A DNA stretch of 64,000 nucleotides from a virus. Shown in pieces: positions 4,475 through 41,331 of the stretch. The translations under genes and the position numbers were made by a program. The notes below the pieces were generated by a model, which had not been told where the DNA came from, did no database searches, and saw only the letters and a list, made by a program, of their open reading frames with translations. Positions within the stretch are counted from its first letter, which is position 1, and each line of letters starts with the position of its first letter. Location of the stretch: positions 32,001 through 96,000 of the IMG/VR virus record IMGVR_UViG_3300027859_000006. The stretch is one strand, 5' to 3'.

Positions 4475-7400
4475 CTACGCTTCTAAAGATGCCAAAGTGA
4501 AACCTTTGGAGTTGGCCGCTCTTTCTAGAGCTTCCCAAATGTCGTCTGACCTATCAACAATACTTTGACTATCTAGAGCTGTAATGTTTAGGTTAAGATT
4601 GTTTTTGGTAACTGGTTTAGACTCAGTTTCAGATTCTGATGCTGGTTTAACGTATAATGGTTGAGTTGGAACAATTTGCTCTGCTCCTCTCTCACCTACA
4701 GTTATAGAACCACCACCTGATCTACCAGGAGTAAAGTTATTAGCCCCTGTACCGAATCCAGACTCTCCACGTAAATAGGATAGCTCACCCATAGATGCTC
4801 CCATAGAAGTATCTACAGCATTGTTTCTAGAACCTACTGAAAGTGATAAGCCTCCAGTGTCTGCGTCTAATGCTGCTAATTGTCCAGCGGATGCTTTCTT
4901 AATGTTGTTAACTTGCATTAACCCCATAGCACCTATAGCTGCTGACATAGCAATGTTCGCAGGGAACGGAACTTCTGCCATTGTTTTCATAATAGCAAGT
5001 GATGTAGACATAGCAGTTTGAGCAATACTAGACTTCTCTTTCTCTTTAATCTTTTTCTTCTCTAAGGCTCTAATCTTAGCTAAGGATTCTTGAGATTTAC
5101 CGTCACGTTTTTTCTCTGCCGCAATTTGGTTGTCTATATCAGTAATGATACCTTGAGTCATTTCACTAAATAGTGAGGACGCCATTGTACCTACTGCTAT
5201 TATACTATCTGAGAAGTCAGATAACGCTAGTTCCTGACCGCTTGCTACTAGCTCAGTAACGTTAGTCATAGTGTCTGCAATAGTTCCAGACATAGCTATA
5301 AATTCGTTCTGTAAGCTTGTTAGGCCAGGTACTGAACCTGCTACTTCAGAAATAGCAGAACCTATTTCTCTATAAGCAGCTGCCTCTTCCTTGGCTAGGG
5401 CTATTCTTTCGGCTGCGTCAGCTGCCATAACCTCTGCGGATAGAACTTGAAGTTGTTGTGGGTCAGCTTTGTTTATTTGAGCTTCTCTAAGTTTAGCACG
5501 CGCAACATTTAAGTCTAGAGTAGCTTGTGCGGAAGCTCTAGCTGCCTCGGTCTCTTCGTTAAGTCTTCTATTTCCCAAGGACTCTCTGTTTCTAGCAGTA
5601 TTATCCATGATAGAGTTTATTGAAGAATCTGCTTCGGCTTGTCTTAAAGCTGCTTGAGCCTTGGCTAACTCTTTGTAGTACCTAACTTCATCTTTAAGTA
5701 AGTCAACTTTACTCTGTTGAAGTATTTCCGCCTCAGTTTGAGTACTGCTTAGTGCTTTCATAGTAGCCAGTAGCTTATCTTCCGCATCTAGTTCTTGCTG
5801 TATCAGTTCATACTTATCCCTGTATACTCCTAAACCTGCGGATTCAAATCTGTTAGCTGCTAAAGTATTGTTAAGCTTAACTTGGTTAATCTTCTCTAAC
5901 TGCTTTTGGTACTCAATCTGCTTCTCTAGTAAGTAGATTTCGTTGCGCTTCTCTCTCATAGCTTCAACATTCTTCTTATCTGCTTTATCCATAAAGTCTA
6001 GAAGATTTTTTTGAATGTCTAACTGTGACTCTAGTCCTTGTAGCTGAGAGTTTCCTTGTAGCGTGTTATCTAGAGCTGCTGCTGATAATGTAACGGATAA
6101 GTCTCTAACTTTTTCGTTTAACTTTTCAGCATACTCGTACAGTTCGTCAAAGCTATTTATAGTAGCATCTAACCCTAAAGATTTAGATATTTTTTCAAAC
6201 TCTTCTCTAGTTTTAGCAGTTACTACTCCAATACCCTGTATTACTGTAGGTATATTAGCTTCTCTAAGGCTCATAGCAGTCTTGACAAATTCGGACATAG
6301 GCCCACTTACTTGCTGAGAACTATTTGCTAAAGATTCCATATCTCTAGCTGCAATCTCAAAGTCTCTGTTAAATGCTATGATAGCTGCTCCCATTTCAGC
6401 TATTTTATCATCGCTGAAACTGGACACTGCAATTCCTGCTTCCCCTAGGACTTTATAGTAGTCGCGAAGTGACGTGGTTGCGGCGTCTACCGTAATTTTT
6501 TGTCTCTCTAGTGCTTGTTCAGTATTGTCCAGCCCTGGGATTAGCCCTACTAAGCTATTAGACAATTCTTTAATTTCATCAGAGAATACATATAATAAAC
6601 TACCTATAGCGGCGGTAGCTATTAAGAATAGTGGATTGGTTAGCATTGCTACTGTTGCTGCTTTAACCGCAGATCCTATAGCAACAAATCCACCGGCTAT
6701 AGCTGCTAATGCAATAGGTATTCTACCTGCTGAAAGAACGGTTAGAGCTATAGCATTGGCTCTAGCTGCATTAGTTAGTCCTACAACCGCTTTAGTAGCA
6801 GTTACAACTGCTGGAGTTAGTGCTGAGATTAGCGTTCTAGTAGCATATACTGTAGTAATGGCTACTAGAGCTTGCATAGCTATGGTAACGTTTTCAACAG
6901 TAGATTTTGACTTTTCTATATGTTCGGAAGTATCTTCGGTTATACTACCTAGCTCTTTAGTAGATTTACTAAGTTCGGAAGCAGCAACCAGAGCCTGACC
7001 CCAGTGTTCGCCTTCTAGAGCATTTTTAAGAGTGTCTTGGGACTCTACTACATCATCGGTAGCAGCCTTAAACTTATTAGTCTGGTTTATTGTGGTTAAC
7101 AGAGAAGTCCCAACTTTTGCTAAAGGCTCTAATATCCTAGAAAGCCCTACTAGCATGTTGTCAATAGCGTTCTTCGCTGCAACACCTAGTTCTTCCCATT
7201 TAGTAGCTCCCGCATCAATACCGGAGAATCTAGTATCTAACTGGCGTTGAACCTCGTTAGTTAGTGCTAGCTGACGTTCGTAATCAGATAATTCGTCTAC
7301 GGTTTTATCCACCGTTTTAGCATATGCTTCAAAAGCTGGTGTCAATCTTGTAACAACACCTAGTTCGTCAAATAGTTCAATCTCTTGTTTAGATATACCG

Positions 7401-9278: not shown

Positions 9279-10145
9279 CTAGATTATTATTTGTGAGTCT
9301 ACGCTATTTAGTAGCTTAAAGTCTGAAACCGACTGTAGTACTCCTGAGCCAAAATCAGCTCTCTGTGTTATGTTGCAATGTCCTAGGTTGACTGTTATGT
9401 AGTCGCCTAGGGATATAGATACTGGCACATCAGGTAAATACTTAGGCTCTTCAGTCCCTCTTTTTATAGTTGTTATATTACCCGCTACTGCCAAGTTTGA
9501 CCCTACTACATCTTCAGGAATAAACATAGTTCCAGAAAATGCGTCGTGTACTGATTGATTATTTAGCCAGTTTATATCTCTAGTCAATTCTAAGGTAGCA
9601 CCTGCTACTCTAGAAACATCAATACCTGGTACGGATGCTGAGATATAGGCGTTTGTAAATGACCCTTGAGAGTATAATGTTCCGTTAGAAGGTAGAACTA
9701 TTGAATCCATCATAGAAGTAAATCCTCTAGCTGTCACAGACATACCAAGAACTCCTCTAGGATTTAGTTTAAAGCTAAGATTTTCTAGTACCACATTATC
9801 TATGAATACTATCTTTGCTCCTAAATCTACGTAAACATCAAACTTTTTAGTCAACTGTCCATTAACTGCTGGGAAGTTACCGGAGGCATCAAAGCCGTAC
9901 CATTCCAAGACTTTTTTCTCAACTGTAATATTATCGCTGAAATACATTTCAAAGTCAAAAGAGCAATTAGACTTGGCATTTACATAAGTTTTGTTATTAA
10001 TAGCTACTGGGTTATGTACTGTTGATACATCGTACCCTCGCTCAATAAAGGTTTCGGAGAAGTTAAAGTCCGCTACCTTTAGCAGATAGCGGTCAGTACC
10101 GTCGTCTATAATGAGCTTAGAGCCTCTTTTAAAACTAAAGCTCAT
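9279..10145 (-). CDS. baseplate tube/minor tail protein (T5 p140-like)
   Basis: 288 aa, tube-like, between tail tube and chaperone genes. Confidence 0.75.
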   Translation of the reverse strand: MSFSFKRGSKLIIDDGTDRYLLKVADFNFSETFIERGYDVSTVHNPVAINNKTYVNAKSNCSFDFEMYFSDNITVEKKVLEWYGFDASGNFPAVNGQLTKKFDVYVDLGAKIVFIDNVVLENLSFKLNPRGVLGMSVTARGFTSMMDSIVLPSNGTLYSQGSFTNAYISASVPGIDVSRVAGATLELTRDINWLNNQSVHDAFSGTMFIPEDVVGSNLAVAGNITTIKRGTEEPKYLPDVPVSISLGDYITVNLGHCNITQRADFGSGVLQSVSDFKLLNSVDSQIII

Positions 10146-20728: not shown

Positions 20729-21063
20729 TATAGTGGTTCCGTACCAGGGCCCCCAGGAGGAGTTCCGGCCTCTTCGTTGATTTCCATCTCAAAGTAATAT
20801 TTATAGGTATTTTGATTAGTTACATTAGAATCTGTATAGATTATGTCACGTTGGATAAAAAACCCCTCGCCCCCGTCCGTTGGTAAGCTGTAATTTCCAG
20901 AAACTTTAGAGAAAGACCCATTGTTAGTAGACCTCATTACGTATCCGTATCCATCTTCTTTAAGTTGTATCCCAGACCCGCCAGAATTCACTCTAACATT
21001 TATAGATACTTCTACTGTAGCCCCTACTATTTCTGCGTTTATTGTACTGTTGTTAGTTGCCAT
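20728..21063 (-). CDS. small beta-rich protein coupled to the RBP gene
   Basis: 111 aa, GGAGG SD, stop/start overlap with RBP; YTDSNVT...TYKYY FN3-like pattern. Confidence 0.6.
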   Translation of the reverse strand: MATNNSTINAEIVGATVEVSINVRVNSGGSGIQLKEDGYGYVMRSTNNGSFSKVSGNYSLPTDGGEGFFIQRDIIYTDSNVTNQNTYKYYFEMEINEEAGTPPGGPGTEPL

Positions 21064-21084
21064 GGTTTCCTCCTAATATTTAGT

Positions 21085-21113
21085 ATTATACGGTAAGCTA
21101 TGCAAATTTTCAA
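21085..21113 (-). promoter_or_regulatory. late promoter for RBP/terminase operon
   Basis: TTGAAA-N17-TATAAT on minus strand. Confidence 0.7.
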
Positions 21114-21214
21114 TTGTATTATTTTTACCCACGGTCTAGTAATGCAATTTGCCCAGTGTTACACGTACGGGTATGGCCTGTACCAAGCCATTGAAGACGT
21201 GTCTGGAAACCGCC

Positions 21215-21329
21215 CTGTATAGTGTTTTGAGTAATATGCTAATTTTCTAAGTGTTACACGCGTCTAGTAGAATCAGCGCTGTATAGTGTTTCTATCAATA
21301 TGCTAATTTTCTAAGTGTTACACACGTCT
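21215..21329. repeat. two ~51-bp direct repeats at the probable left genome end
   Basis: CTGTATAGTGTTT..AATATGCTAATTTTCTAAGTGTTACAC.CGTCT at 21215-21265 and 21279-21329; partial AGTGTTACACG at 21155. Confidence 0.85.
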
Positions 21330-21385
21330 GGGGGCGACCCCGTATCTAAATGAGAATAAGTCTCATTACCGCCCCCTATGGGTAT

Positions 21386-21413
21386 GGGATCACATACCTT
21401 AGCATGTGATCCC
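21386..21413. terminator. hairpin after A2 (probable terminator)
   Basis: GGGATCACAT-N8-ATGTGATCCC perfect inverted repeat just past the A2 stop. Confidence 0.5.
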
Positions 21414-21420
21414 GATCCAA

Positions 21421-21804
21421 TTACTCGGTGTCGTCATCCGATCCGCTTTCTAGATCATCGATGATCGCCGCTTGTTGCTCAACAAATGCCGCTAGCGCTT
21501 CAAGTTCTCCCTTGTTCGCCTTTTCCAAGCTGTCAACCGTTAGACCTGTTGTTTCAGCGATTTGCTTAACAACTTCGATTTTACGCGTTGCGCTTGGGTT
21601 GCCCACCTTTGCCTTAGCTTCTGGCGAGATGTATTCGCCCATGCTAACCAACTTCTGACGCGCGCTGTGTTCTGTTACGTCAGAGTCGTATGCAAGCGCT
21701 TTAAACGCTGCCGGTTCAAGCGCCTTGCCACCATTAGCTTTGATAGCTGCCGCGTATGCTGTGCTTAACTTCGCTGTGTTTTCTTCTGTCCAAACTTTAG
21801 CCAT
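21421..21804 (-). CDS. A2: pre-early DNA-binding/second-step transfer protein A2
   Basis: WTEENT..., RQKLVS..EY, KVG..SATRK, SLEKA..L motifs match T5 A2. Confidence 0.8.
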   Translation of the reverse strand: MAKVWTEENTAKLSTAYAAAIKANGGKALEPAAFKALAYDSDVTEHSARQKLVSMGEYISPEAKAKVGNPSATRKIEVVKQIAETTGLTVDSLEKANKGELEALAAFVEQQAAIIDDLESGSDDDTE

Positions 21805-21899
21805 GATTTGATCTCCTTAGATCGTAAATTAAATGTTGGTTTGTGTTTGCGGTCGTATTTTGCCCCGACCGCTTGAGCATTAAAACAAATTAAGAACGG

Positions 21900-23561
21900 T
21901 TATGCAACAACTTTTTGCGGGTTCAAGGTGATTAATTGTACCTGTCCGTTGCTGTATTCCATCATGTGACCGTGATCCCACGATGACGCGCCCCCACGGT
22001 TATAGCCTTGATTTAGTCGAGCGGTAACGCCTGTAGTAAACACTGAGCCTATTATGCATGGGCTGTGGGTGTGTCCTGTTATTAGGTTTAAATTCCAGTC
22101 TTTGAACTGATTTGGGTTTCCTGCGCTCCCGTTTGCGCCCTTGTGCCCATGCTGCGAATAATCGAATTTAAGCGGCTTAAAAGGCTTATCCATTCGACCA
22201 AAATGCACATTATTGGGTAACTCTGGCAATGTGGTTAGATCGGCATTTTCTAAGGCGATCTGTAACGCGTTTTTCTCATGTTCACCTTGGTCTAAGGTAT
22301 CGCACACTAACCAATTTAACAGATAGTATAATTTGCTGTTATGGCTGTCCTGCTTGGGATTAACGCTACTATCATCCAGCCAATTGTCGAGCGCTGAGTT
22401 GTGATTGCTCTCGGTGATCGATACGGTATCAACTATGGTAGATAATTCGGTTAACTGTACGATTACCTGTTTAAGGTCGTTCTCAACGCTTTCATGTCGA
22501 TTTGCGTACAAGTGCTTCCCACTGTTACGGTTATGGTGAGACCTTGTGCTAAAGTGTAAAATATCGTCAACTGCGATCACACTTGGTTTAACTTTGTCAA
22601 GAAAGTCCATTGTCTTTTGCCAATATGCATGATCGTAAACTTCACAATGTAGATCACCAAGTTTTCCGGCTTCTGGTAATTTACCGTAATAATATTCGAG
22701 TTCAGGTAACACCACATTCAATGATCCGTCATCGCCTTGAAAAACGTTGGTAACGTTATAACCACCGTCACACTTGTAAACGATCATGGCTGCCTGTTTA
22801 TGGTCTTTTTCCGCTTCTGCTCCTGCGCGACTTCTGGTGTAGTTGTACGCTGTGCAGCTACCAGTAGTGACAGCCTTTGTAATTGATTGATCGTTAAGTC
22901 GTGGTAGCGTTTTGTACTGCTGCTTGGGGCTTGCTACTACCGTGATTAGTTCACCACTATTCAGCTTGGCCGCTGCATTAATAGGCAATTTGTTAGTTGG
23001 TAAAACTGCTGCGGTGCTAGCGATCAAACAGGCGTTTTTCTCGAATAGCCAACAATCGTCAAGCTGTAAAAACGGCGTGACCTTAGGGTTAAATACTTCG
23101 GCTTCGGTCTCTACCGCTGGACTAAAGGCGTTTTTGTTATAGTAAACGGGCATTACCATTAAACGCGCATCTAGTAGGCTTGCTCTCATATCATCGATCA
23201 TAGCAAGAAGTTGATCCTCAAAGCCTGTGGTAATAGTGTTATTTTGTGCGCTTGTAATTACGAAAACATCACCGTCTAGAACTGGCAATAAATCGCGCTG
23301 TGATTGAGTGTAACCAACTTGTGTATCTGCCGCTGGTTTAGTCGCTGCACTTGGCTTTTTCGCTTTCTCAGCCTCTCTCAGGCTCTTTAGATGCTCAACA
23401 ACTAGCGGCATTAAAATAGCTGCATCGCCTTTAAGATCAAGGTTATGGATCGCATCCTCAACAACTTCCAAGCGTGAATCACGTTTACGCTTACCTAAAA
23501 GGTTATTTTCCTCGCACTCTGCGCAAAGTAGATCAAAGTTTTTATCGTTTAAATGTTTCAT
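21900..23561 (-). CDS. A1: pre-early protein A1 (DNA transfer/host DNA degradation; metallophosphoesterase-like)
   Basis: 553 aa; FVITSAQNNT, LGDLH, ESNH, HGH.GANGS.G, TGHTHSP, GYN.GGASSW. Confidence 0.88.
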   Translation of the reverse strand: MKHLNDKNFDLLCAECEENNLLGKRKRDSRLEVVEDAIHNLDLKGDAAILMPLVVEHLKSLREAEKAKKPSAATKPAADTQVGYTQSQRDLLPVLDGDVFVITSAQNNTITTGFEDQLLAMIDDMRASLLDARLMVMPVYYNKNAFSPAVETEAEVFNPKVTPFLQLDDCWLFEKNACLIASTAAVLPTNKLPINAAAKLNSGELITVVASPKQQYKTLPRLNDQSITKAVTTGSCTAYNYTRSRAGAEAEKDHKQAAMIVYKCDGGYNVTNVFQGDDGSLNVVLPELEYYYGKLPEAGKLGDLHCEVYDHAYWQKTMDFLDKVKPSVIAVDDILHFSTRSHHNRNSGKHLYANRHESVENDLKQVIVQLTELSTIVDTVSITESNHNSALDNWLDDSSVNPKQDSHNSKLYYLLNWLVCDTLDQGEHEKNALQIALENADLTTLPELPNNVHFGRMDKPFKPLKFDYSQHGHKGANGSAGNPNQFKDWNLNLITGHTHSPCIIGSVFTTGVTARLNQGYNRGGASSWDHGHMMEYSNGQVQLITLNPQKVVA

Positions 23562-23626
23562 AAATAACGGTTTCCCTATTAAGGTTTTTTAAGGATCTAT
23601 GAAGATCCCGTTACGAGTTGATCAAA

Positions 23627-24142
23627 TTAATGACCGTGAAAAGGAACGTGAATTGCTTTCATGTTCAGGCGCTGTGCCATTTGGCAGTTTGCTAGATTAT
23701 CATCGACCAAAAATGATCGCGACAATTCAGCCGATGAAAATGCGCGTGTTAGGTGGTACTCTTTTAATTCAAAATCTCGTCTACGATCATTTTCGCCCTC
23801 TCTGGAAAAGATTGCGGTCGGTTTGATCCCGTTTTTACGCAACCACTTTTCAGAGTTCTTGCACATAACGCGAGCGGTACAAACAAAAAATGGTCTACCT
23901 GCATCAGTTAGGAACTGCGGCACTTCTGCCAGTGGCATGATCTGATCTTTAGCAATATTTGCAGCCGTTGAAAGTTTACGATACATTTCAAGGTTAAGCG
24001 ATCCGTCAGGGTGTATCGCTTGGCGGTGTGTAGCATCGATCACTACACCATCAAGATCAAAAATAGGTATAATGCTCTGATCCAATAGGATCGCATCAGT
24101 CATTTGAAGCGCTGCCGCTCTTGTATTTTGAATTGTTAACAT
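23627..24142 (-). CDS. dmp: HAD-family deoxynucleoside-5'-monophosphatase
   Basis: IFDLDGVVID, CTAR, K, LVDD motifs; pre-early location. Confidence 0.75.
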   Translation of the reverse strand: MLTIQNTRAAALQMTDAILLDQSIIPIFDLDGVVIDATHRQAIHPDGSLNLEMYRKLSTAANIAKDQIMPLAEVPQFLTDAGRPFFVCTARVMCKNSEKWLRKNGIKPTAIFSREGENDRRRDFELKEYHLTRAFSSAELSRSFLVDDNLANCQMAQRLNMKAIHVPFHGH

Positions 24143-24216
24143 CTGGTTAACTCCCGTTTAAGGTATATAAAAATATACGGTTTTTGTTGGGGCTGCTTGC
24201 CTCTCAACTGTTACCC

Positions 24217-24244
24217 ATTATATAGACCAACAAACTTTTGTCTA
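24217..24244 (-). promoter_or_regulatory. leftward pre-early promoter (dmp-A1-A2)
   Basis: TAGACA-N16-TATAAT on minus strand. Confidence 0.6.
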
Positions 24245-24320
24245 TATTAGTTTTTATACGTATGTATGAAATTATATACTTTTCATTTGCTCTGTTCTGT
24301 GCTACCCTACCAGCAAATGC

Positions 24321-25031
24321 AAATGAGAACTATTCTCATCTGACCGGCTCCGCCAGGTCGGAACGACCAAACGCAAATGAGAATGATTCGCATTCAACCG
24401 CGCCGATTTTGGGTCGCTTTCCCAGCTATGACTTATTATTGCATTTACGTGTAGCATTGTCTAGAACTAATTTATTATAAGAATGAATTTATTTAGGCGA
24501 TTTTGTTATATAGTGAATTGTGGCATTCTAGCAATTACTATGCCAACTCAAAAACCGTGCCAAAGTCGCAAATCGCGTATAAGCGGTCTAAATGGCTCTG
24601 TATTGAGAGCTGGATGCAAGCCAAGCAAGTGCATTGCTATACCGTAGAAGTCTTCTCATATTGCCATTGTGTAAGTTGTTGATTTTAAAGGGAAAAATAA
24701 TGCTTGACAAGCCGATGGCACGATTTTTTCTATTGCAAACGACGTGCCAACTTTTATTGGTCAATTTCACTACTTTTTAGTCAATTTCGCTTATGGCACG
24801 GACTTTGCTAGGTAAATACGAATGCAAATGATAATGATTCGCATTTGACCGCGCCGAAAAATGGCATGGAAGTTGCTAGGGAAGTTATCAACAGGTACGT
24901 GTGAGTAAGTGAAGTTATGCACAATACTGTATAAATGTACAAGCGCTCAGCGGACGCTGGTGGACTTATCCACAGAAAATTGTGGATAAATATACCTGTA
25001 TAGATATACAGTAGTTTTAAGTTGTGGGTAA
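24321..25031. promoter_or_regulatory. non-coding array of host DNA-binding-protein sites (Fur, sigma54, IHF, DnaA, LexA)
   Basis: Fur-like 24321, 24375, 24826; sigma54 24530(-), 24734(-), 24794(+), 24862(+); IHF 24672-24684; DnaA 24885, 24915, 24966, 24981, 25023; LexA 24996-25011. Confidence 0.75.
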
Positions 25032-25190
25032 CTCAAACGTACCATTTAAAGCTCCTGTAAGCCATTCTGACGGGTTTTTATGTGAGAGTAATACTAGGGC
25101 TTAGGTGGGATAGAATACCTAGTGAGTCCAGGCGAAGCCTGGTTATAAAAAACGGGTTTTCTAGAGCGAAAAGTTATTATAAAAAGGTAC

Positions 25191-25219
25191 TTTACAATTT
25201 TAGCCACCGCTACTATAAT
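25191..25219 (+). promoter_or_regulatory. rightward pre-early promoter
   Basis: TTTACA-N17-TATAAT. Confidence 0.7.
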
Positions 25220-25271
25220 GTATTTAAAGGTTGAGGCAATAAGGCAGCAACCAAAAACGGGGTATAAAAAT

Positions 25272-25637
25272 ATGAAATATTTCAATTTTGATGTTAATGC
25301 ATCTATTTCTGTAAAAGTTGAACTAATTCAACTAGTATCTAACTCTGAACTAGTTGCTCTACGCTTTTCACGTACCGAAGAAATTTTTGGTATTAAAGAA
25401 CTTGTAAGTGTAAAGCATGTTGCAGTGAGCAATGAAGAGGTGTACAGTACTAAGCTAGAATCCCTAGCTATTAAGGCATTTGGTACTAATAGTAAAATAT
25501 ACGCTACATTTTTAGTTGCAGGTAAAAACGAAAATGCTAACGAGCACTACTATAAACTTATGGAAATTCAAGAACTCCTACACGCATTAAAAACCAGACC
25601 TAATTTAAGACTTCGTAATATGGAAGTTACAAAATAA
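25272..25637 (+). CDS. pre-early hypothetical protein
   Basis: ATG at 25272 after GGGG SD-like, downstream of promoter. Confidence 0.6.
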   Translation: MKYFNFDVNASISVKVELIQLVSNSELVALRFSRTEEIFGIKELVSVKHVAVSNEEVYSTKLESLAIKAFGTNSKIYATFLVAGKNENANEHYYKLMEIQELLHALKTRPNLRLRNMEVTK

Positions 25638-25826
25638 TATAAAAAAAAAGGTCTTGACTTTCTAGTTAAGACCTGCGCCGCGCGCCGTAGGCGCCAAAAT
25701 TATGACACATGCAAGCTACGTGCCACTACGCAAGATTACGTGTGTGGTCTGACCAGTGAAAAAGTTGTTGCGGTCTTAGCTGGTAGCTGTATAATGATTA
25801 CATCAACTAGAGACAGGGAGACAGGG

Positions 25827-25967
25827 ATGAATGCATCTCATGTTATAGGCTTGCTATTTTTAGGCCTAGCCATTGCTACACTTTTTTCTAGAGAGCCACT
25901 AGCGGCTATACCAGTGGCTACTATAGGTGTGTTGCTAATGTTTGGCAACACTGAGAAACCAGTTTAA
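25827..25967 (+). CDS. small membrane protein
   Basis: MNASHVIGLLFLG..., two hydrophobic stretches, GGGAG SD. Confidence 0.5.
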   Translation: MNASHVIGLLFLGLAIATLFSREPLAAIPVATIGVLLMFGNTEKPV

Positions 25968-26033
25968 CCCCGTAGGCGATAACCGCCATTTTGCCCCGTC
26001 TATCTGGGCGGGGCATTTTTTAAGGGTAGTATA

Positions 26034-26225
26034 ATGGATAAAAAATTCGGCTGGTGTGGTGCTGGCTTAATGGTAATTTTTAGCTTTACCTTGTTGCCGA
26101 TTTTCGGTATACTAGGTCTGACGTTGCTTACAGTGCAAGCGGTTAGCACTAAGCAACATAACTTGACAGCTCTAAACACATTTAGTATACTAGGGCTGAT
26201 TTTAAACTCTACGGGAGTAATTTAA
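26034..26225 (+). CDS. small membrane protein
   Basis: 63 aa hydrophobic; SD AAGGG. Confidence 0.55.
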   Translation: MDKKFGWCGAGLMVIFSFTLLPIFGILGLTLLTVQAVSTKQHNLTALNTFSILGLILNSTGVI

Positions 26226-26226
26226 T

Positions 26227-26625
26227 ATGTTTAAGCAATTCGCAGCAACACGTATTCTAGCTACAGCTATCGCTTCGGTTTTGGATTCTGGAAAGGATCT
26301 AAGTTGTGAAAATGTTGTTTCAGCTATGATGATCGAGGCAAGCAAAAACGAAATCCCTTACGCGGATTTAAAAACCTTTTGTGTTGACACGATTGTAGTG
26401 GCAACGAATACACCTACTACTCCAATCGTTGCAAACCTAGAGGAAATTGCACAAGCGGATGATCCTCTGATGCATTTAGCCAGTCGTATATTGAGCGATG
26501 AAAACATGGGAGCGCTACAGAAAAACCTAGAGGCTGAGCCTGATGAAGATGAGGAAGAAGGTTCACTACTTGATGTGATTCGTAGCTTGCGTGGCAATGT
26601 GCGCACGGAAAAGGATGTAAACTAG
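26227..26625 (+). CDS. pre-early hypothetical protein
   Basis: 132 aa, GGAG SD. Confidence 0.65.
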   Translation: MFKQFAATRILATAIASVLDSGKDLSCENVVSAMMIEASKNEIPYADLKTFCVDTIVVATNTPTTPIVANLEEIAQADDPLMHLASRILSDENMGALQKNLEAEPDEDEEEGSLLDVIRSLRGNVRTEKDVN

Positions 26626-26636
26626 TAGAGGCAGCT

Positions 26637-26885
26637 ATGGCGAACACTGGCATTGAAAAGGGGTGTTCGCCTACACCCCTGAGAACAGTAAGCACAATTC
26701 GCAGAGAGATTCAAGCCCTAGAGCAAGAATATCTCAATTTACCTAGTATAATGGTAGCTAGTATAGTAGGGTACGATTATATAGATCGTATTAATGCGAA
26801 AAAATCAACTATTAATTTTCTCACTACCAGAATAAGACGCCGCAAGTTTTACAACTGGCTGAGAAAGAAAACAGGGTGCAAATGA
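26637..26885 (+). CDS. pre-early hypothetical protein
   Basis: GAGG SD, operon context. Confidence 0.55.
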   Translation: MANTGIEKGCSPTPLRTVSTIRREIQALEQEYLNLPSIMVASIVGYDYIDRINAKKSTINFLTTRIRRRKFYNWLRKKTGCK

Positions 26886-27142
26886 TGAAACTAGAAGACA
26901 AACTAGAAGTGGTTAAAAAGTTAACTGACCTATTTAAACGTAACTACGGTACACAACAAAGTGTGGAGATACTCCAAGCGTTATTCGATGCAGAGGGTAG
27001 TGCGGAGGAGGATTTCGCGGTTGATGAACTACAACCCATTTTAGGGCTACACTTGAGCTATGTTTCTGAAAGCGATGAGACAGAGCAGAGCGACATTGAT
27101 ACTACCAGTTTATTATGTGAACTTTTTGCATACTGCACTTAG
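26876..27142 (+). CDS. pre-early acidic hypothetical protein
   Basis: overlaps upstream stop; operon context. Confidence 0.55.
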   Translation: MQMMKLEDKLEVVKKLTDLFKRNYGTQQSVEILQALFDAEGSAEEDFAVDELQPILGLHLSYVSESDETEQSDIDTTSLLCELFAYCT

Positions 27143-27244
27143 TAAAATTAATTTCAAAAAAGCGCTTGCTTTTTTGTGTGCCCGTTGTATACTATAAACA
27201 AGTCGAGGCAATACCGCCAAGACACTAATAACGGGGTAAAAAAT

Positions 27245-27697
27245 ATGAAAACTTCTTCTTTTGTGGCTGGTACTGTAGATTGCGTTTATCCTAGACCTGT
27301 AGAGGGTGACGACTTGGCAAAGGTGGCCGCTGCTCTAGACAGCATGGAGGAACTTTATACAGTTGAGCTATCGCTGGATAACTCTTTTGATAGTGAGGGA
27401 GAGTACCTAGTGCCTCTATTGGCAGGGTTTGACCTGAATAATGACTACCGTGCAGAGGGCAGACTAAACAAGTCTTTCCGTGATTATAAAGACCGTAGCA
27501 AGGGCTTTGCGTTCGTAGGCAAAATGGAGGTGCAGCCTCGCTACCTACCACAAGCAGAATTTTGGTTCAATACTACTAGAGAACCTAGCACATGGGGGGA
27601 GGCTTTGCAAGCTACCGTAGAGCGGATCAAAGAACACGACGGAAGAGGCACTTTAGTAGTAAAAGCCCGTCGCGAAATTTTTAAAATAGCTATCTAA
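27245..27697 (+). CDS. pre-early hypothetical protein
   Basis: ATG at 27245 after ACGGGGTAAAAAAT leader (similar to the leader at 25272); hairpin GGGGC-GCAA-GCCCC follows. Confidence 0.65.
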   Translation: MKTSSFVAGTVDCVYPRPVEGDDLAKVAAALDSMEELYTVELSLDNSFDSEGEYLVPLLAGFDLNNDYRAEGRLNKSFRDYKDRSKGFAFVGKMEVQPRYLPQAEFWFNTTREPSTWGEALQATVERIKEHDGRGTLVVKARREIFKIAI

Positions 27698-27798
27698 TCA
27701 ATAATAGGGGCGCAAGCCCCCCAATACTTACAACTGGAGAAAATGAAGATGAAATTTAAAAAAGCTATGAAAATTGTAAAAAAGCTTGACAGCTAAGC

Positions 27799-27981
27799 AT
27801 GAAAGCAAAAATAACTATGCTAGAGGAATTAACAGGCATAGAGGATGGTGAAACTCTGACCAAAGAAATACTAGCGCAGGGTGTAACTCTTGAAAACGTC
27901 GCCTTAGCTAATTCAGCCGCCAACAAACATACGTTTACTTGGACAAAAGACGACGTAGAAAGGATGCGACCTTATATGTAA
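27799..27981 (+). CDS. pre-early hypothetical protein
   Basis: 60 aa ORF in operon direction. Confidence 0.45.
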   Translation: MKAKITMLEELTGIEDGETLTKEILAQGVTLENVALANSAANKHTFTWTKDDVERMRPYM

Positions 27982-27999
27982 ACTAAAGTGAATAAAAAG

Positions 28000-28240
28000 T
28001 GCATATTTATGCACTTTTTTGCATAACCGCGCCGCTCCGGCACACGGATTCCCACCTATACAGTATAACAGGTCTACACGTCAACGCAAGCACTTTTTAA
28101 CTGGTCAGACCACGTAATCTAAATGAGAATGATTCGCATTCAACCGCGCCGATTTTACCATACCCTGACACAAAAAACAAGTCTACATGCAAATGATTCG
28201 TATTTAACTTTTTGAATCTAAATGCAAATGATTCGCATTC
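28000..28240. promoter_or_regulatory. second host-regulator site cluster (ArgR-, FadR-, Fur-like)
   Basis: TGCATATTTATGCA 28000-28013; AACTGGTCAGACCACGT 28099-28115; Fur-like boxes 28121, 28185, 28220. Confidence 0.65.
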
Positions 28241-28315
28241 GCAAAGTAACCTTATTTTTCGACAAATAAATTTACCGAAAAATCGGGGGTTTACCCCTGT
28301 CCGGGAGCGCAGCGA

Positions 28316-28526
28316 CCTGCGCCAGAGTACGATTTCGACTAGTACTAAACCGACCGCTGCCCCTACGTGTGAGCTACCCTGAGTACTAATCCGACTACCA
28401 TGGCGGCTTGTCCCAATCTTCAGCAGACACTACAGCTTCTGACGGGCGTGCTGTGCTGGTGGAAGTAGACGGGCGCGAAGTGCCCGTCGCCAGAGTACGA
28501 TTCTGACCTAGTACTAGACCGACCGC
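28316..28526. repeat. short-unit direct repeats (AGTAC-N4/5-CCGAC-like x5)
   Basis: units at 28326, 28341, 28382, 28494, 28510; hairpin 28468-28488. Confidence 0.75.
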
Positions 28527-28628
28527 CTCTGCCAAGAGCAGGAGTTCGTCTTTTTTAGCAGCACTGAGGCTAGGGGCGGCAATGTTTAAGTGAGTACAAA
28601 TCTGATTGGCTATATCTGTCTTAGTCAT
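28395..28628 (-). CDS. small protein resembling the A2 C-terminal helical module
   Basis: MTKTDIANQI..HL....SLSAAKKDEL; 3' half runs through the repeats. Confidence 0.45.
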   Translation of the reverse strand: MTKTDIANQICTHLNIAAPSLSAAKKDELLLLAEAVGLVLGQNRTLATGTSRPSTSTSTARPSEAVVSAEDWDKPPW

Positions 28629-28660
28629 GCTTATTCCGGTTAATTCAACTTATACGCATA

Positions 28661-29329
28661 TTATATAAGGTTTATAGCGGAAAAGCAAGGGATTTCTTGG
28701 CTTATTTTGGGCTTTTCAGGGAATCTTATATCAGGCTTAAATGCGTACCATTTACCATCTAGAGTATAAGAATTATGATACTTTGCGCAATATATAGTGT
28801 CAAAGTTATATATACCCTCATCTTCTACATACTCCCAGAACTCAGCTAAAGACCATCCGGCCGGTTTGACCTCCGAAGGAGGGAGGTAGCCGAGAACCCT
28901 GTAGGCGTTGTTGTCTATTAAAAATTGTTCAGTCTTGTCACCCACCAGCGCCTCTATTTCAGAGTACAAATCCGGTGACAGTTTATTTTTAGTCAGTACC
29001 TCTGTAGCAGCAAGTCTCTTTAAAGCGGCTACCCCTGTTTTTCTAACTAGAGGTAGGATCTCGGAACAGACGTAAAGCTGCCATTCTCTTGCTGTTGGCA
29101 TATCAGATCGCATTAAAAAGAAGTAAAGAACCTGCTCAGCATACAATTTACGTCCGTCGGAGCACGGTGCACTCTCGATACGTAAATCAGCATTACGCTT
29201 AAGAAAATCTCGTATTGCTCGCTTAGGCTCTGAGTAACCTAGCTTCTCTGCAAATTCTTCAAGGTCAAAATAAAATTCGTTGTTTATCTCGTAGAGTGAG
29301 ACACCCTTTTCTAAGTTTAGTATATTCAT
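28661..29329 (-). CDS. Bro-N domain (antirepressor-like) protein
   Basis: AEKLGYS.PKRAI, LY.F.MRSD.P.A.EWQ.YV.SEILP.VRKTG. Confidence 0.8.
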   Translation of the reverse strand: MNILNLEKGVSLYEINNEFYFDLEEFAEKLGYSEPKRAIRDFLKRNADLRIESAPCSDGRKLYAEQVLYFFLMRSDMPTAREWQLYVCSEILPLVRKTGVAALKRLAATEVLTKNKLSPDLYSEIEALVGDKTEQFLIDNNAYRVLGYLPPSEVKPAGWSLAEFWEYVEDEGIYNFDTIYCAKYHNSYTLDGKWYAFKPDIRFPEKPKISQEIPCFSAINLI

Positions 29330-29382
29330 AGGTTTCAGTATATCAAAAATAGTCTAGGAGGGCAAATGATTTAACAAAACAC

Positions 29383-29436
29383 TTGATTCGAGACGTTTTT
29401 TAACGTATAATACTTGTATTGAATGAATGAGGAAGA
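29383..29436 (+). promoter_or_regulatory. early-type promoter/leader repeat
   Basis: TTGATT...CGTATAATACTTGTATTGAATGAATGAGGA; same leader as the minus-strand early promoters. Confidence 0.75.
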
Positions 29437-29442
29437 ACGAAT

Positions 29443-29754
29443 ATGTGGAACGAACAAAAATCTGCTCAACTAGTTAAGACTTACAAAACTAACGGCTACG
29501 ATGCTGCGCAAGCGGCGAAGGCGCTTGGAGTATCGGAACGCTCTGCTATCTCTAAGCTGGTGGCTCTAGGAGAGTATGTTAAGCCTGTTAAGGTACAAGC
29601 TTCCACGGGGCGCATTAATAAAACTCAGTACATTTCTGCGGTCGAGGCAATGCTAGGAGTCAAGTCTGGTAAACTAGCGGGTCTCTCTGGGGCTAGTGCT
29701 AATGCGATAGAAGAATTAGCGGCTGCTCTTGTAAAACTAGGAGACCGTGCATAA
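29443..29754 (+). CDS. A2-paralogous DNA-binding protein
   Basis: MWNEQKSAQL...SERSAISKLVALGEY aligns with A2 (21421). Confidence 0.7.
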   Translation: MWNEQKSAQLVKTYKTNGYDAAQAAKALGVSERSAISKLVALGEYVKPVKVQASTGRINKTQYISAVEAMLGVKSGKLAGLSGASANAIEELAAALVKLGDRA

Positions 29755-30002
29755 TGGATGTTATTGTTGGAATTTGGACTGTATTAACCCTTCTAGGGTA
29801 TCTAGCCTACTTCGCAGGCGACAGAGCGACTGTAGTAATGTATGACCTAGAGGTGTATCAGGGTAGAGTATTCAATTGGGCGGATGCAGTTAGTATTATC
29901 CTAGGGGTGGTATCGGGGCACTATTGGCTGTCTTTGCTAGTGCCGCTCAGCTCGATTCTCATGTATAAGCGCACTCGCAAAAAGTTGGGACGTCCCAGCT
30001 AG
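29754..30002 (+). CDS. membrane protein
   Basis: translationally coupled; hydrophobic segments. Confidence 0.55.
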   Translation: MDVIVGIWTVLTLLGYLAYFAGDRATVVMYDLEVYQGRVFNWADAVSIILGVVSGHYWLSLLVPLSSILMYKRTRKKLGRPS

Positions 30003-30100
30003 CGCCGCTCCGCGGCGAGCCCTTTCCCATCTATAACATGTATTATACGCGGAATTGAGCCCGTTTGCAAGTGATTTTTAGTAAGAAACTGGTGAGGCTA

Positions 30101-30558
30101 GGGTGGGTTTTGGGAAAGACTCGGGGAATTTTAGTCGCGCCTAACGGTCGTTTACGACCTGCGCCTCCGAAAAAGCTAAAAAATTGCTTGCGAGGCTACA
30201 AACCCAAATTTCGCCACTTCGCGGCGGATTAGGGTAAAATGTTGCAAACCCAATCTTGGCCGTAAACGGCCGGGTTATGGGTAGAAGTGTAATAGACCTA
30301 GGGGAAGGTTGGGAGGGATTTGGGATACAAGTGTAATCCGCATCGAGGAAAGAATTTGGGTAAGTGTTGCTAAGGTTCTCGCCGGAACAATGCCGAAGGC
30401 ATAGAGTGGGCGAGGATATAGCAGAAGTGTAATAGAAGTATAGTAGAGTCTAGGGAGAAGTCTAGGCTAGAGTTGGAAAGGCAGCGGGCGGGGCGAGTCC
30501 AGGGCCGTATGTTGGGAAGGGTCGGGGAAGGTTGGGATGGATTTGGGATTAAGTGGGG
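30101..30558 (+). repeat. G-tract repeats (potential G-quadruplexes) near the probable right end of the terminal repeat
   Basis: GGGGAAGGTTGGGA.GGATTTGGGAT at 30301 and 30524; GGGTGGGTTTTGGG...GGGG at 30101. Confidence 0.7.
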
Positions 30559-30887
30559 AAACATTCCTCTGATATAGCTATAAGTATAACTATAAATAAC
30601 TATCCCTCCTAGTTTTTTGATACTCAAAATTTTAAAATTGGTACTTTTTCGATAGATACAATTATGGCAATAAAATCTTTTTGTTGTGTTCGCTTAAAGC
30701 GTCTATTTCTTAGTATTGGTTAGGCTTGTCAAAGTTTTTTGGGGTGTGCTTTAAACAGAGTCGCACCCCACTTTGAGCCAAACCGACTAAGAAGTCGCTA
30801 AAGCTCACATCAATAGAGAGTCATATAACTCTCTAGAAGATGTTAATATTGTAGCAGATTTTTTTCTCCATGTAAAGTATTTTTCTT

Positions 30888-31160
30888 TTACTCACCAATG
30901 GGTTCTGACCACAATGCTTCAAATGGTTCTTTGCAGTAAACAACATATGACCAAGACGTGTAACTTGGGTTACTTTTTCGGTCGACTTTGTTTTCTTCTA
31001 GGATTTGAAGATATCGGTCGTATTTTTGCTTAACAGTTCTTTCCTTATCTTCCTTGAACAAGCGTTGTGTGACTTGCATATGCTTTAACAGCATTTCTTG
31101 AGTGTGGTTTGGGAATTTGTTGCAAAACTGTCTTAGTTTAACTTTGTAGGCTTCTTTCAT
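30888..31160 (-). CDS. hypothetical protein, paralog family A
   Basis: MKE.YKVK..QFCNK...NP...SW.YVVY.KE shared with 31157. Confidence 0.75.
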   Translation of the reverse strand: MKEAYKVKLRQFCNKFPNHTQEMLLKHMQVTQRLFKEDKERTVKQKYDRYLQILEENKVDRKSNPSYTSWSYVVYCKEPFEALWSEPIGE

Positions 31161-41114: not shown

Positions 41115-41331
41115 GTTCTTTTTGTCCTTCGTCGGTAACACTTTCAAATAGGGTTTCTTTAAAGATAACAATAAATGCTATTGTGGCGACTGTTACTGTT
41201 ATTAGGGCGTAAAGCACGCCGATGAAATTGGATAACACTACAACGGATGTAGCGTAAATAGCCACTGTAATAACGTACAGTATTAAACTGTATAACGCTA
41301 CTGCGGCGTCTCGTAATATGATGTTAAGCAA
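41107..41331 (-). CDS. membrane protein
   Basis: two TM segments. Confidence 0.5.
   Translation of the reverse strand: MLNIILRDAAVALYSLILYVITVAIYATSVVVLSNFIGVLYALITVTVATIAFIVIFKETLFESVTDEGQKEHD

Follow-up and report, generated by a model that had tools for sequence, protein, structure and literature searches.

Which proteins, if any, recognize the gene-free repeats in the DNA that T5-like phages inject first? The entry of T5 DNA stops at 8% of the genome, and this first-step pause occurs without phage protein synthesis. We approached the question through a 1,075-nucleotide (nt) untranslated stretch, hereafter the array (positions 24143 to 25217), in a 64,000-nt window that comprises bases 32001 to 96000 of a 108,151-nt viral contig; positions given for this phage are those of the window. 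Judging from its A1 relatives and its marine metagenome relatives, the source is an uncultured marine T5-like phage. The array separates a leftward HAD-A1-A2 operon from a rightward pre-early operon, a position equivalent to that of T5 Repeat Regions 1/2. Because homologues of A1 and A2 adjoin it, it probably lies in pre-early (first-step-transfer) DNA, which presumptively is injected first. We found in it a dense series of near-consensus motifs for DnaA, LexA, Fur, and sigma-54 RNA polymerase, and we regard as an evenly balanced proposition that it works in cis as a hub on which host proteins present before infection dock and is the counterpart of the T5 repeat regions.

The DnaA boxes, repeats, and palindromes of T5 first-step DNA have already been published (Davison 2020, 10.1101/866236). 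According to that work, DnaA boxes are conserved in T5 repeat regions 2 and 3 and are linked to the injection stop, membrane-bound DnaA being proposed to halt injection; the repeat regions are better conserved than the neighboring open reading frames (ORFs), and some T5-like types have a single module. IHF and FIS are mentioned there in passing, and LexA, Fur, and sigma-54 are not mentioned. In the literature searched, the "injection stop signal" was nowhere combined with LexA, only DnaA boxes being described, and a 2026 T5 preprint still gives the signal only as repeats and palindromes. Relative to this literature, the mix of LexA, Fur, and sigma-54 motifs beyond the known DnaA boxes appears to be new. 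In a sequence-only reading of the window, this multi-regulator mosaic was not known to have been described; the mix was indeed not found in the literature searched, but it is not peculiar to this phage and represents a family-wide module of T5 repeat regions.

Motif content of the array

The sites that the sequence-only reading had listed were all present as described. We compared their numbers in the array with 500 dinucleotide shuffles and, for a second null, with the remainder of the genome, using the patterns TGGCAY-N5-TTGCW for sigma-54 and CTGT-N8-ACAG for LexA. Exact sigma-54 elements numbered 4 (0.004 expected from the shuffles), DnaA boxes with ≤1 mismatch 5 (0.32 expected; P ~1e-5), Fur-type boxes with ≤4 mismatches 4 (0.02 expected; P ~6e-10), and exact LexA boxes 1 (0.008 expected; P ~0.01), with only ~1 exact LexA-type match per genome expected by chance. 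The sigma-54, DnaA, and Fur counts exceeded those of all 500 shuffles and of the rest of the genome. Thus, the proposed comparison with composition-matched controls placed site density far above them for sigma-54, DnaA, Fur, and LexA. Furthermore, all 5 exact sigma-54 matches in the 108,151-nt genome, where we estimate that ~0.2 would be expected, fall in 24530 to 25725. Blind counts of 8-mers and gapped dyads in pre-early non-coding DNA versus the rest of the genome returned the Fur-type box and the sigma-54-type word as the top families (Fur-type core dyad, 8 versus 0; sigma-54-type bipartite word, 5 versus 0).

Two of the proposed ligands did not hold up. The IHF site is a chance-level count (1 observed versus 0.086 expected in the array, and 9 genome-wide) and overlaps the -10 element of a conserved promoter, and the suggested Met-box pair is a weak match in sequence that varies among close relatives. 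Elsewhere in the window, a LexA-like pair at 41265 to 41303 (one exact and one one-mismatch box, 7 nt apart) was rejected as a candidate, since it lies inside overlapping small ORFs and fits ~1 chance match per genome; the pairing of the two boxes is odd, though consistent with chance.

From left to right, the array consists of two Fur-type boxes, two leftward sigma-54 elements, a facing sigma-54 pair (24716/24734), a rightward sigma-54 pair that encloses a Fur-type box, and a ~150-nt DnaA/LexA module (Table 1). Fur-type boxes 1 to 3 have 2 to 4 mismatches to the 18 specified positions of the 19-nt consensus and share its symmetry center, and a 36-nt copy identical to the repeat that contains box 2 stands at 28121 to 28156. 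The LexA boxes overlap no promoter, the nearest sigma-70-type promoter being ~180 to 200 nt away.

Several further repeats and palindromes were observed. The GC-rich 9-nt word at the end of the 37-nt repeats has four copies genome-wide (24397, 24848, 28026, and 28143), all in pre-early non-coding DNA; it is directly 3' of a Fur-type box at two sites and a few nt downstream of one at another, whereas at 28026 it follows a separate palindrome, and it flanks a Fur-type box also in the related contig L013. GC-rich direct repeats (38 nt, two copies; 19 nt, three copies) occupy 28302 to 28526, in the gene-free block past the rightward operon and near three Fur-type repeats. Between the leftward and rightward sigma-54 elements are conserved palindromes at 24603 to 24627 and 24646 to 24656, which are candidate sites for a further protein. 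The Escherichia coli Chi word has 8 genome copies, five of them within 20.5 to 29.6 kb (20499, 24956 to 24963, 28455, 28942, and 29556; four on the plus strand), and the copy at 24956 to 24963 is present in the two closest relatives and not in L013.

The claim that the stretch is gene-free was borne out: no ORF of the array was kept among four relatives, and an Rfam scan of 21000 to 31000 gave no match above threshold. A coding role of the small ORFs was rejected because none is conserved and the persisting frames change mostly by replacements, as read by eye. Searches of the array against cultured phages by megablast and blastn gave no match. The divergent promoters that had been placed on either side of the array were also found (Table 1), but the interval between them is not free of promoters, since two more conserved leftward sigma-70-type promoters lie inside it.

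Conservation, distribution, and genomic setting

We gathered relatives through A1 instead of the array sequence. The array was kept in three related contigs, of which L013, from IMG/VR, is the most distant (A1 protein 64% identical). Nucleotide identity to L013 is 87% over 24374 to 24818 and 76.5% over 24882 to 25059, compared with ~68% for the A1 gene and 65 to 74% for the HAD gene. Because the identity of the block exceeds that of both genes, this comparison indicates that the non-coding block is under stronger constraint than the adjoining essential genes. A ~68-nt unit, consisting of a sigma-54 element and Fur-type box 3, is absent in L013 and has an extra copy in L004 and L011; as far as these contigs indicate, the general plan endures through gains and losses of units. 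In the sigma-54 elements of the relatives, both half-sites are mostly kept and the spacer changes; the 24794 element has one -24 mismatch in L004. A fixed sigma-54-to-Fur spacing rule was dropped, given gaps of 9 to 32 nt among lineages.

We also searched the whole genomes of T5, phi3, D386, IW18, and a close relative, G001, in which terminal repeats are annotated only for T5 and phi3. All LexA-type, Fur-type, and exact sigma-54 matches in these five genomes fall in the pre-early/terminal-repeat part, as do nearly all perfect DnaA boxes, whereas controls with the patterns reversed matched 0 to 3 times per genome. Between the window phage and T5, the sequences of the Fur-type core and of the LexA-type box hardly differ, and the LexA-type boxes of the various phages change in the central spacer with the outer arms fixed. 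No sigma-54 match was found in the whole T5 genome. Several uncultured relatives carry LexA-type, DnaA, and sigma-54 elements at matching places, while none of these motifs was found in the A1-bearing loci of HNL01 and KASIA, which lack the T5-like layout and were used as negative controls. In another contig, L017 (A1 45% identical), Fur-type boxes and sigma-54 elements alternate at 5363 to 5635; no DnaA or LexA boxes were found in its 15.5-kb locus (7 kb on each side of A1).

The best cultured A1 relatives are Vibrio T5-like phages (45 to 47% identity), and close uncultured relatives occur commonly in marine metagenomes, including those of Tara Oceans. The assembly is a collapsed contig of 108 kb, and the physical left terminus of the genome is probably at ~21322, because the left end of phi3 aligns there. 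Two 60-nt direct repeats, 87% alike (21206 to 21265 and 21270 to 21329), whose 3' end is partly repeated a third time at 21146, may belong to a genome-end or packaging signal, since their end coincides with the aligned phi3 terminus. Near genome ends, a Fur-type palindrome lies 30 to 90 nt from the physical end in phi3 and IW18 (129132 to 129150 of the IW18 record), and in the window phage the segment directly to the right of the 21349 Fur-type box (21372 to 21418) is 94% identical to L013. The presumptive pre-early region also encodes a Bro-N/anti-repressor-like protein (28661 to 29329, minus strand) and a second, shorter A2-like DNA-binding protein (29443 to 29754, plus strand), and a G-rich repeat block at 30000 to 30600 may be where the terminal repeat ends on the right.

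Table 1. Features of the array and its surroundings (window positions)
Feature	Position	Strand	Remarks
Fur-type box	21349-21367		~30 nt inside the predicted left genome end; aligned to the left terminal repeat of phi3 at its positions 30-48
Leftward pre-early operon HAD-A1-A2	21421-24142	-	Adjoins the array on the left
A2-like DNA-binding protein	21421-21804	-	phrog_1725, E 2e-16
A1 DNA-transfer protein	21900-23561	-	phrog_1745, E 5e-130
HAD/PNK-phosphatase-like gene	23627-24142	-	
Array, untranslated	24143-25217		Between the leftward HAD-A1-A2 and rightward pre-early operons
Sigma-70-type promoter beside the HAD-like gene	24244-24217	-	11/12 consensus matches
Fur-type box 1	24322-24340		Palindrome
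37-nt repeat	24370-24406	+	Fur-type box 2 (24376-24394) and GC-rich 9-nt tail
Internal sigma-70-type promoter	24463-24435	-	Extended -10; 26/29 columns invariant in four relatives
Sigma-54 -24/-12 element, exact	24530-24545	-	15/16 columns invariant
Sigma-54-like element, degenerate	24547-24562	-	-12 part imperfect; 14/16 columns invariant
IHF consensus match	24672-24684	-	Overlaps the -10 of the 24710 promoter
Internal sigma-70-type promoter	24710-24682	-	27/29 columns invariant in four relatives
Sigma-54-like element, one mismatch	24716-24731	+	Faces the 24734 element; 15/16 columns invariant
Sigma-54 -24/-12 element, exact	24734-24749	-	Identical in L013
Sigma-54 -24/-12 element, exact	24794-24809	+	Spacer varies in relatives, half-sites largely kept
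37-nt repeat	24821-24857	+	Fur-type box 3 (24827-24845; overlapping register 24821) and GC-rich tail
Sigma-54 -24/-12 element, exact	24862-24877	+	Directed into the DnaA/LexA module, 7 nt off
DnaA/LexA module	24885-25031		Conserved in L004, L005, and L013; content like the T5 IRC/IRD arms
DnaA boxes	24885-24893, 24915-24923, 25023-25031	+, +, -	
LexA-type box, one mismatch	24927-24942		
Perfect DnaA boxes	24966-24974, 24981-24989	+, -	Convergent, 6 nt apart
LexA-type box, exact	24996-25011		
Sigma-70-type promoter of the rightward pre-early operon	25191-25219	+	11/12 matches
Sigma-54-type element, fifth exact	25710-25725	-	Just beyond the first rightward ORF
Three further Fur-type repeats	28116-28240	+	Include 28122 and 28221; next gene-free block, 27698-28660

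Possible roles of the array

In the docking hub that we favor, DnaA, LexA, Fur, and sigma-54 RNA polymerase already in a gammaproteobacterial cell would bind the array as part of the first DNA to enter, at close-packed, near-consensus sites interleaved with the pre-early promoters. The resulting nucleoprotein complex would organize, hold, or mark the incoming DNA while entry pauses ahead of the second step and would perhaps modulate the embedded promoters, with no titration of host regulators. Several abundant proteins would serve redundantly, and the gain and loss of units from one relative to another would thereby be accounted for. The DnaA, LexA, Fur, and sigma-54 motif classes are those of most invariant specificity across Gammaproteobacteria. 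We infer that the ligands are host proteins rather than phage proteins, because the sites are near-identical between the window phage and T5, whose A1 and A2 proteins are only 32% and 34% identical, respectively; fixed sites fit host proteins of invariant specificity better than fast-diverging phage proteins.

Considerably more doubtful is whether these host proteins (DnaA, LexA, and Fur, and in marine lineages also sigma-54 polymerase) are working parts of two-step entry, setting or holding the pause or licensing second-step transfer by host state. If they were, the 60-year-old "injection stop signal" would be a host-protein/DNA complex. As to the role of the conserved gene-free repeats of T5 and of its 8% stop, the motifs name host proteins to examine, and T5 itself carries LexA-type, Fur-type, and DnaA sites; therefore, the question is addressable in E. 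coli with T5. The marine lineage adds sigma-54 polymerase, with units duplicated and lost, and these observations point to a redundant use of whatever invariant DNA-binding proteins the host offers. Should the sites turn out to bind nothing, only a description of conserved repeats would be left.

A number of points weigh against the docking hub. The sigma-54 class is lineage specific, T5 being without a match. The GC-rich tail of the 37-nt repeats is not part of the Fur box and so is not explained by Fur. Columns are invariant at 72% within motifs versus 60% outside them, and conservation spans the whole 24383-to-25072 block, so that promoters or unrecognized elements may drive part of it; therefore, the recognized sites leave part of the constraint unexplained. 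The placement of the array inside a long direct terminal repeat is presumptive only, the contig being collapsed. Ligand assignments for any T5-like phage are predictions from motifs, and the candidate ligands of the window phage are assumed to be those of a gammaproteobacterial host. Besides, it is not obvious how proteins that bind in the cytoplasm could halt DNA that has yet to enter. In a genome-wide loss-of-function screen (PMC7553319), fhuA was named as the T5 hit; the main text brings up fur only in connection with receptor repression, and rpoN and lexA are absent from it. Since that text holds no fur, rpoN, or lexA hit of their own, no single non-essential host factor appears to be required for T5, an outcome that would fit redundancy among host proteins.

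The array might instead be a true regulatory region whose operators and promoters couple pre-early transcription (A1/A2 and second-step commitment) to host state, with inputs of iron via Fur, DNA damage via LexA, replication status via DnaA-ATP, and stress or nitrogen via sigma-54 activators. This role, which we consider weaker than the docking hub and unlikely, draws on the three tandem leftward promoters and one rightward promoter in or flanking the array. The predicted start of the 24794 sigma-54 element is followed within a few bases by Fur box 3, that of the 24862 element is covered by a DnaA box, and the order and orientation from sigma-54 through DnaA to LexA recur in phi3 and IW18, which makes three lineages with the window phage. 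For the 24716 element only, a conserved 21-nt palindrome (~24605 to 24625) and the IHF match are placed as an activator site and a bend would be. However, most boxes lie off the sigma-70 promoters (for the LexA boxes, the closest is ~200 nt away), the sigma-54-to-Fur spacing is not fixed among lineages, D386 violates the orientation rule, and no activator site was identified. Since recA hosts support the growth of T5, LexA cleavage cannot be a requirement; a LexA-cleavage timer for second-step transfer was set aside on this ground. A strictly lytic phage would also gain little by repressing its own first genes. Less likely still is that the ligands are encoded by the phage (A2 or its paralogue, terminase, or a virion protein located at the stop site), in which case the palindromes and repeats would bear only a superficial likeness to host operators. 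A2 is a DNA-binding protein required for second-step transfer, genes for an A2-like paralogue and a Bro-N protein are close by, the Fur-type repeats have an extra conserved tail, and in phi3 and IW18 a Fur-type box stands ~30 to 90 nt from the physical end, where packaging proteins act. What makes this improbable is that each of four motif classes is near-perfect to a different host consensus, for which coincidence is an unlikely cause, and that the sites are almost identical although A1 and A2 are about one-third identical. Moreover, it is established for T5 that the first-step pause needs no phage protein synthesis.

A cluster of five DnaA boxes, including two perfect ones in convergent orientation, in AT-rich surroundings could also suggest an oriC-like replication origin with bending sites or a hot spot for recombination of the terminal repeats, as could the Chi word inside the array and the location of five of its eight genome copies between 20.5 and 29.6 kb. 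We rate this as quite improbable, because the LexA, Fur, and sigma-54 sites would be left unexplained, the Chi word is not conserved in L013, and T5 origins are near the genome center, with the replication genes not yet in the cell (Davison 2020, 10.1101/866236). The least likely of all, with only the slightest of chances, is a decoy sponge, which the sequence-only reading had offered among its explanations and by which the array would titrate Fur, LexA, or sigma-54 and derepress iron or SOS regulons. Many strong sites do stand together, and the titration of Fur by multicopy Fur boxes is established in plasmid assays. By textbook abundances, though, the stoichiometry would be inadequate: at the first-step stage, a single copy of the array would offer a few sites to protein pools of hundreds to thousands of molecules per cell. 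In T5, furthermore, host DNA is later degraded and host transcription is off, so that derepression would have no target. What persists of the earlier interpretation is a gene-free array of motifs for multiple host proteins in presumptive first-step DNA, while its IHF site, Met boxes, and sponge do not.

Relation to known systems

In T7 genome entry, host RNA polymerase pulls the leading DNA into the cell. The array resembles this system in that a leading genome end carries strong sites for a host DNA-binding machine acting before phage proteins; however, T7 uses active sigma-70 transcription, whereas most sites here would serve proteins that are not motors, and sigma-54 polymerase needs an activator to become active. 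Like oriC and the hubs formed by DnaA, IHF, and Fis, the array packs DnaA boxes closely with sites for other host proteins over a few hundred base pairs, a layout from which a higher-order complex would result. Unlike at oriC, the partners here would be LexA, Fur, and sigma-54 polymerase, and the likeness is drawn from motifs.

The closest system is that of T5 Repeat Regions 1 to 3, including IRC-spacer-IRD/IRD'-spacer-IRC' (Heusterspreute 1987; Wang 2005 AY543070; Davison 2020, 10.1101/866236). Both are gene-free pre-early blocks beside A1/A2 and between divergent operons, with clustered DnaA boxes, dense repeats and palindromes, and conservation above that of the neighboring ORFs. In T5, too, a LexA-type palindrome lies by DnaA boxes, at 6213 (repeat region 2) and at 9411 (injection-stop region), and the same Fur-type core is arrayed at 9552 to 9709, which by a rough coordinate conversion between two T5 records would be about at Davison's shear point. 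The window phage differs from T5 in its single DnaA/LexA module, with no second inverted cluster anywhere in its genome, and in its five to six sigma-54-type elements, of which T5 has none. Its Fur-type boxes are spread across three gene-free blocks, its gene order is HAD-A1-A2 instead of A2-A1-dmp, and the DnaA pair with a 3-nt gap is rearranged, although retained in L013 (2166/2178).

The Vibrio T5-like phages phi3, IW18, and D386 (Ermolyevavirinae) have two mirror-image modules and fewer Fur-type boxes than the window phage, and their A1 proteins are only 45 to 47% identical. They share with it the combination of exact sigma-54 elements with a LexA-type box and perfect DnaA boxes, confined to terminal-repeat or pre-early DNA. 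In fact, in phi3 and IW18, a sigma-54 element is directed into a DnaA box, which is followed by a LexA box, in the same order and orientation as in the window phage.

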